A DNA stretch of 64,000 nt, from NCBI RefSeq assembly GCF_056746865.1, contig NZ_CM163382.1. The stretch is one strand, 5' to 3'. Shown here piece after piece: positions 4,309 through 4,510 of the stretch. Numbering within the stretch: the first letter of the stretch is position 1; each line of letters starts with the position of its first letter. Made by a program: the position numbers and the translations under genes. The notes under the pieces were generated by a model that worked only from the letters and a program-made list of their open reading frames with translations, had not been told where the DNA came from and did not search any database.

Positions 4309-4510
4309 GCCTGATGCGACGCTGCCGCGTCTTATCAGGCCTACGAGTTCGGTGCTGTGTAGGTCGGATAAGGCGTTCATGCCGCATCCGACAATAACAG
4401 CATTGCCTGATGCGACGCTGCCGCGTCTTATCAGGCCTACGAGTTCAGTGCTGTGTAGGTCGGATAAGGCGTTCACGCCGCATCCGGCAATAACAGCCTT
4501 GCCTGACGCA
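4309..4510. repeat. REP/BIME cluster: 96-bp unit repeated twice plus a partial third copy, each with REP palindromes (GCCTGATGCGACGCTGCCGCGTCTTATCAGGCCTAC)
   Basis: Direct tandem repetition visible at 4309-4404 and 4405-4500; intergenic holC-pepA. Confidence 0.85.

Follow-up and report, generated by a model that had tools for sequence, protein, structure and literature searches.

Results

Structure of the pepA-holC spacer

The spacer between pepA and holC in the E. coli DNA studied here (a window of 64,000 nucleotides from contig NZ_CM163382.1, NCBI RefSeq assembly GCF_056746865.1) is occupied by a tandem repeat, which we assign to the already known element class BIME-2, i.e., to arrays of Z2- and Y-type REPs in alternating orientation. 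We consider it about 90% probable that the locus is correctly described as a BIME-2 array of two full and end-truncated units that is resized between its units, that would act via RNA hairpins and as a gyrase site, and whose open reading frames (ORFs) are artefacts.

With Tandem Repeats Finder, we obtained one array (4309-4506) that has a period of 96, 2.1 copies, 96% matches, 0 indels and a score of 368. Direct sequence comparison of unit 1 (4309-4404) and unit 2 (4405-4500) provides an identity of 92/96, with mismatches at positions 4351, 4380, 4391 and 4402. Read on the plus strand, each 96-bp unit is composed of a 36-nt Z2 REP, a 14-nt linker, a 34-nt inverted Y REP and a 12-nt linker. The array lies wholly inside the 255-nt spacer from the pepA stop to the holC start and fills most of it. 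Respective features are as follows.

958-3813, minus strand: valS, above the NCBIfam equivalog cutoff
3813-4256, minus strand: holC, above the NCBIfam equivalog cutoff
4257-4286, minus strand: holC 5' leader and ribosome-binding region, outside the repeat and bordering the variable segment towards holC
4287-4308, no strand: degenerate partial unit, CGCATCAGGTATACACCGCAGC, comprising the 3' half of an inverted REP plus tail linker; 13/22 match to the unit end, in register
4309-4344, plus strand: Z2-type REP 1, GCCTGATGCGACGC-TGCC-GCGTCTTATCAGGC-CTAC; predicted RNA hairpin of -20.5 kcal/mol, z -5.1
4345-4358, no strand: head-to-head linker 1 (S-type position), GAGTTCGGTGCTGT, 14 nt, from direct reading
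4359-4392, minus strand: Y-type REP 1, inverted with respect to Z2, with an alignment to the Y portion of the naRNA4 model in Rfam (Y-l-Z2); predicted RNA hairpin of -17.4 kcal/mol, z -5.9
4393-4404, no strand: tail-to-tail linker 1, AATAACAGCATT, 12 nt, at the s/l/r position of the BIME-2 nomenclature
4405-4440, plus strand: Z2-type REP 2, identical to Z2 REP 1, from pattern, consensus and Rfam matches
4441-4454, no strand: head-to-head linker 2, GAGTTCAGTGCTGT, from direct reading
4455-4488, minus strand: Y-type REP 2, inverted; predicted RNA hairpin of -15.3 kcal/mol, z -3.5
4489-4500, no strand: tail linker 2, AATAACAGCCTT, from direct reading
4501-4511, plus strand: truncated third unit, GCCTGACGCAA, an 11-nt 5' arm of a Z2 REP; 9/11 match to the unit start, abutting the pepA stop
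4512-6023, minus strand: pepA, above the NCBIfam equivalog cutoff, with its stop codon at 4512-4514

A first-pass annotation of this DNA had described two full units and a partial third between holC and pepA, each unit with convergent REP palindromes. All of this agrees with our findings: the partial third unit is the segment 4501-4511 that touches the pepA stop, both flanking genes score above their family cutoffs at the expected places, and each unit combines a Z2 REP on the plus strand with a Y REP on the minus strand, i.e., two palindromes of opposite orientation. What had been overlooked is the partial, degenerate unit towards holC (4287-4308).

Both array ends recur among the BIME alleles. 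Next to pepA, every BIME allele of Escherichia keeps the truncated third unit as GCCTGA(C/T)GCAA. Towards holC, the partial unit 4287-4308 is found in all BIME alleles and is missing from the boxC-like allele introduced below. Next to it, 29-30 nt of the form ATATGGGGCTTCTTGTGGTGGATTTAAAT precede the variable part in the spacers of Escherichia, Citrobacter, Kluyvera, Klebsiella and Salmonella, i.e., the holC leader at 4257-4286 is, judged by its sequence, conserved across Enterobacteriaceae. The 5-mer ACGCA is present at both outer edges of the BIME-specific segment (4286-4290 and 4506-4510), and the boxC-like allele retains one ACGCA on the pepA side. These 5-mers may be a target duplication or microhomology left from insertion or replacement.

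Outside of the array, the window contains one other REP, a lone Z2-type copy at 8577-8612 on the minus strand just downstream of lptG, with 2 mismatches to the degenerate pattern. Two further features are found near the locus. At 5271-5465 on the plus strand, i.e., antisense to the coding sequence of pepA, we found a match to the Rfam family Ysr276 (Yersinia sRNA 276, antisense type) with 181 bits (gathering score 100); this match may only reflect the conservation of the pepA sequence itself. In the gap between pepA and lptF, a 16-codon ORF with a TTG start (6177-6227, plus strand; translation LSIIILATISTTQENK) occupies the position at which other E. coli records annotate the micro-protein gene ytgA.

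Assignment to the BIME-2 class

The window shows 3 matches to the degenerate REP pattern while 0.00 are expected from 100 shuffles, and thus the array is no chance feature. Its four palindromes, 34-36 nt each, lie within the 30-40 nt known for the imperfect, stem-loop forming REP palindromes. The REP-typical tetranucleotides are in place as well, i.e., on the plus strand CTAC ends both Z2 copies and GTAG starts both Y copies. Furthermore, a query containing the array hits a median of at least 35 places per E. coli genome, as is characteristic for extragenic multicopy REPs.

For the subtype calls, we used Y and Z2 consensus sequences and cross-checked them against the Rfam naRNA4 model. The segment 4362-4437 (plus strand) aligns end to end with this Y-linker-Z2 model; the palindromes are nearly identical and only the linker differs.

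According to its published definition, BIME-2 is made up of z2 and y REPs that are inverted relative to each other and separated by a short linker; the units occur in tandem copies whose number varies between strains, and such variation is a described property of the class. We find all of these features at the pepA-holC locus, namely convergent Z2 and Y REPs, short linkers, a tandem arrangement, and copy numbers that vary among strains. The first-pass annotation had called the repeat BIME-type and ordinary for E. coli, and indeed the K-12 allele of this locus is listed as BIME-2 in a published table. We also considered and discarded an assignment to BIME-1: the REPs are of type Z2 and not Z1, the linker has a length of 14 nt, the copies are in tandem, and the IHF consensus WATCAANNNNTTR has no match on either strand within 4257-4511.

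The Rfam model naRNA4 (RF02564) provides an additional candidate identity. It matches 4362-4437 on the plus strand with 76.3 bits, i.e., above its gathering score of 59.5, while on the sense (minus) strand it reaches 51.4 bits and stays below that score; the remaining partial matches range from 18.6 to 37.1 bits. naRNA4 is one Y-l-Z2 unit of the BIME-2 element REP325, a six-unit array between yjdM and yjdN. That is, both the score on the plus strand and the origin of naRNA4 from a BIME-2 unit would be compatible with a gene for a naRNA4-like nucleoid-associated ncRNA, which bridges cruciform DNA together with HU. However, pepA, holC and valS are all encoded on the strand opposite to the one that passes the gathering score, the spacer showed no promoter-like site, the transcribed sense strand scores below threshold, and the linker is unlike that of naRNA4. 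Moreover, the locus is pepA-holC and not yjdM-yjdN. Since the model would fit any BIME-2 unit, the match reflects a shared repeat family and not a shared gene. We thus rejected the identity with a naRNA4 gene based on locus, sense-strand score and linker, and consider such a gene highly unlikely here.

ORFs over the repeat

Three ORFs from the open reading frame list overlap the array.

4259-4528, plus strand: ORF of 89 aa
4291-4476, minus strand: ORF of 61 aa
4280-4387, minus strand: ORF of 35 aa

None of them has an NCBIfam match and all their Pfam matches are below cutoff. The encoded peptides correspond to translated REP units and are internally repeated. Start, frame and length of the ORFs change among alleles with 1, 2 and 3 units, and in the boxC-like allele the ORFs are gone. 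In accordance, RefSeq PGAP annotates nothing over the spacer in 13 of 13 records inspected. The exact 89-aa and 61-aa products are deposited in GenBank as "hypothetical protein". Beside the presence of the ORFs themselves, these entries are what speaks for a real small protein encoded by the 89-aa, 61-aa or 35-aa frame; given the frame instability across alleles, the sub-cutoff family matches and the empty PGAP annotation, we give this practically no chance and rejected a protein-coding identity for lack of family homology and of a conserved frame. The ORFs are translation artefacts, just as the first-pass annotation, which had called them spurious on both strands, proposed. In terms of annotation hygiene, the REP-derived 89-aa and 61-aa GenBank entries should be masked.

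Variation among E. coli strains

The first-pass annotation had suggested a comparison of copy numbers across strains. We did this for two systematic samples of 59 chromosomes each, which were obtained with different queries; the boxC-like class was counted exactly among 5,425 complete genomes. Both samples provide the same counts, i.e., 28 chromosomes (47%) with three units, 11 (19%) with two, 5 (8%) with one, and 15 (25%) without BIME. Taking all strains together, unit numbers range from 1 to 4 and about a quarter of the strains carry a different repeat.

One unit, and thereby a spacer of 159 nt, is found in K-12 (MG1655 and derivatives), while a spacer of 353 nt with three units is shared by E. 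coli B, O157:H7 and others. The two-unit allele of the window (255 nt) is 100% identical to that of strain FDAARGOS_497 over the 701 nt queried; other two-unit versions with spacers of 254-260 nt are present in strains 536, N73, SBF45 and MS20649. Four units (455 nt) were observed in one genome labelled E. coli. One locus (H132) considered as a disrupted spacer turned out to be an ordinary one-unit allele.

The different repeat is a boxC-like replacement, which is present in 1,405 of the 5,425 complete E. coli genomes (25.9%), e.g., in O111:H8, and results in a spacer of 132-133 nt. Here, about 96 nt with CCCTCTCCCTTAGGGAGAGGGTTAGGGTGAGGG stand in place of window positions 4287-4505. The insert has a 59-nt core that belongs to a dispersed repeat, found at a median of 7 sites per genome. 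This dispersed copy number is consistent with boxC, and we use the term "boxC-like" for the insert. boxC itself is described as a 56-bp dispersed repeat family with 33 copies listed for K-12. The 64-kb window is free of the boxC-like motif.

The alleles are related to each other as mosaics. Unit 1 of the window equals unit 2 of the three-unit allele, and unit 2 of the window equals the Z2 of unit 2 followed by the Y and tail linker of unit 3. Similarly, the single unit of K-12 combines the unit 1 Z2 with the unit 3 Y. Evidently, units recombine between alleles.

These relations bear on how the two-unit state arose. The first-pass annotation had spoken of a 96-bp tandem duplication. Tandem 96-bp units are indeed present; a recent event in this strain does not follow, with the three-unit allele being the most frequent in E. 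coli. A tandem duplication of one ancestral unit, recent and confined to this strain, would explain why K-12 has one unit and the window two, and why the two Z2 REPs of the window are identical. It is nevertheless unlikely: about 47% of E. coli have three units, E. albertii has three and E. whittamii two between the same flanks, and the haplotypes of the window fit better to a loss of unit 1 plus conversion. Given that the window's units correspond to the three-unit allele's units 2 and 3, apart from the loop of the second Z2, which is that of unit 2, the two-unit state is at least as likely to be a product of contraction or conversion as of a fresh duplication.

The pepA-holC spacer in other species

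We scanned species representatives using a ValS N-terminus pattern, which provided 120 Enterobacterales loci, 101 of them with complete hits. In all 101 species with complete hits, the gene order pepA-holC-valS is preserved. BIME-2 units between the same flanks are found in E. albertii (three) and E. whittamii (two); the array thus predates E. coli. Units within one array are more alike than they are to the units of other species, which indicates concerted evolution.

Beyond these species, the spacer content varies. Citrobacter, Kluyvera, Klebsiella, Pseudescherichia and Salmonella diarizonae show REP variants of their own, either single or paired. ERIC-like elements are present in S. arizonae and some Citrobacter, boxC-like palindromes in Pseudocitrobacter, Cedecea, Siccibacter and Buttiauxella, and a hairpin followed by a U-run, i.e., resembling an intrinsic terminator, in Pantoea, Mixta and Winslowiella. 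In five Erwinia genomes, the pepA-holC spacer has a length of 3 nt, which implies tight co-transcription of pepA and holC in contrast to the hairpin-bearing spacers of 60-450 nt elsewhere.

Independently of the sequence family, a strong hairpin follows pepA in nearly all Enterobacterales spacers that we folded. Over a long time, GC-rich palindromes from many families have landed or been retained just behind pepA, and the pepA-holC site accumulates repeats across Enterobacterales. Some spacers are expanded by tandem palindromic repeats of their own: that of Pseudocitrobacter faecalis (286 nt) contains several tandem boxC-like palindromes, that of Pantoea dispersa a 383-nt repeat array, and that of Mangrovibacter is expanded in the same manner.

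Predicted RNA structure of the spacer

The sense (minus-strand) RNA of the spacer has a predicted fold of -115.8 kcal/mol (z -7.05). For single REP hairpins, the predicted energies range from -15.3 to -20.5 kcal/mol with z-scores of -3.5 to -5.9. The Y-S-Z2 segment 4405-4488 can also form one long hairpin of -39.1 kcal/mol, which is nearly equal in energy to two separate hairpins. Scanning the pepA-holC spacer for promoters and intrinsic terminators, we found neither. Our literature search for transcript ends of pepA-holC or transcription units of holC-valS returned no paper.

The two truncated end units are inverted repeats of each other, i.e., 4287-4296 is inverted-complementary to 4501-4511. 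In the predicted sense RNA they pair and thereby enclose the array, and the resulting long-range helix covers the pepA stop codon. According to a rule given in a paper that cites the respective work, ribosome stalling by REPs needs a REP at most 15 nt from the stop codon. Along the pepA transcript, Y REP 2 (4455-4488) comes before all other REPs and, in its canonical extent, starts 23 nt past the stop codon, i.e., beyond this limit; a predicted stem extension comes to within 14 nt. REP-mediated ribosome stalling at pepA is thus doubtful.

The Z2 loop provides a hint on selection. Its variant TGTTGTG occurs in K-12 and in unit 1 of three-unit alleles. The respective pair is kept as G-U on the plus strand and becomes a C-A mismatch on the sense strand, which argues against tight selection on the stem of the sense RNA.

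Gyrase cleavage at the K-12 allele

At the DNA level, the locus has been covered by a gyrase Topo-seq study on a K-12 derivative. Its supplementary table lists an entry "BIMEs2" of 83 bp at 4490136-4490219 between <holC and <pepA. The numbers of gyrase cleavage sites reported for this K-12 element are 2 with ciprofloxacin (Cfx), 1 with rifampicin and ciprofloxacin (RifCfx), 0 with microcin (Micro) and 2 with oxolinic acid (Oxo). The study further states that gyrase favours y over z2 REPs and that BIME-2 signals increase when transcription is blocked. The MG1655 RefSeq record carries no REP feature annotation at the pepA-holC spacer. From the cleavage measured at the one-unit K-12 allele, we infer that gyrase would also cleave at the two-unit allele of the window.

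Discussion

Possible roles and dynamics of the array

Most likely, the array contributes stable hairpins to the 3' end of the pepA mRNA and a gyrase site to the DNA of this strain. In the pepA-sense transcript, each REP would fold into a stable GC-rich hairpin without U-tract. Hairpins of this kind are known to block 3'-to-5' exonucleases; here, they would stabilise the pepA mRNA and could attenuate read-through into holC. Roles of REPs in mRNA stability and attenuation are attributed by a citing paper to Higgins 1988, Espeli 2001, and Khemici and Carpousis 2004. At the DNA level, the Y REPs would serve as a transcription-independent site of gyrase binding and cleavage, as measured at the K-12 locus. 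Copy number would drift by unequal recombination, slippage, conversion between units, or strand exchange by TnpA-REP (RAYT), which could produce the observed series of 1-4 units.

The 26% of E. coli without array and the range of 1-4 copies imply that any host function is dispensable or replaceable by another hairpin. This fits a neutral selfish DNA equally well, i.e., a repeat that is kept and resized by RAYT/TnpA-REP and recombination and has no host function at this place. Such an account would explain why 1,405 of 5,425 E. coli genomes have a boxC-like repeat instead, why copy number varies from 1 to 4, and why the spacer of other genera is nearly absent or filled with ERIC-like elements or unrelated palindromes. 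It is also in line with in vitro work in which TnpA-REP cleaves and recombines BIMEs; the cognate RAYT gene (tnpA-REP) is known from E. coli K-12. Two observations are at odds with a purely selfish repeat. First, the K-12 BIME-2 at this locus is cleaved by gyrase in vivo. Second, nearly every Enterobacterales spacer that we folded has a strong hairpin after pepA irrespective of its sequence family, which hints that a hairpin is favoured at this position. We regard the absence of any host function as possible but rather improbable. The two views are not exclusive, since a selfish origin can be compatible with incidental host effects. We keep the BIME-2 array with hairpin and gyrase roles as our preferred reading.

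A more far-reaching idea is that the number of units acts as a heritable, reversible, VNTR-like knob for the ratio of pepA to holC/valS expression or for local gyrase recruitment, with the boxC-like allele kept as a functional equivalent instead of as neutral junk. We put this forward as a speculation with little likelihood of being correct.

Significance

The element class, its K-12 locus and the strain-to-strain variation of its copy number are all previously published, and the array is thus of little biological weight by itself. What the locus offers is a natural experiment, in which the boxC-like repeat and 1, 2, 3 or 4 BIME-2 units are embedded in near-identical flanks. This allelic series can be used as a test bed for the debated functions of BIME-2, namely gyrase recruitment, mRNA stabilisation and attenuation. 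From a practical point of view, the spacer is a length-polymorphic marker (132, 159-161, 254-260, 353-355 and 455 nt) of use for strain typing, and the same length polymorphism can mislead short-read assemblies.

Comparison with known systems

BIME-1 elements (RIB/RIP) resemble the array in having an intergenic, inverted REP pair that borders a gene's 3' end. They differ in composition, i.e., BIME-1 is a single copy of Z1 and Y REPs with a long L linker that carries an IHF site, whereas the array at hand consists of tandem Z2 and Y REPs with a 14-nt linker.

With REPINs (RAYT/TnpA-REP), the array shares two inverted REPs that are separated by a short spacer and able to pair as one long hairpin, and E. 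coli BIMEs are likewise acted on by TnpA-REP in vitro. In contrast to REPINs, the REPs of the array are of differing subtypes (Y and Z2) and the pairs are arranged in tandem rather than dispersed singly.

REP325/naRNA4 agrees with the array in its Y and Z2 palindromes and in their order, and the plus strand of the array passes the Rfam gathering score. It differs by its locus, by its inter-REP linker and by its six units compared to two in the window, where the model fits the antisense strand of the neighbouring genes.

The boxC-like repeat takes the same spacer in 26% of E. coli genomes. It, too, is GC-rich and palindromic and would give a hairpin behind pepA; its sequence (CCCTCTCCCTTAGGGAGAGGGTTAGGGTGAGGG) is unrelated to the BIME-2 array.

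Within the BIME-2 elements of the Gilson/Bachellier classification, the closest relative is the K-12 BIME-2 of the same locus. The two alleles share their flanks, the Z2 and Y REPs, the head linker of 14 nt and the truncated Z2 arm beside the pepA stop. They differ in size, with one unit in a 159-nt spacer in K-12 versus two units in 255 nt in the window, and in the Z2 loop, which reads TGTTGTG in K-12 and TGCCGCG in the window.
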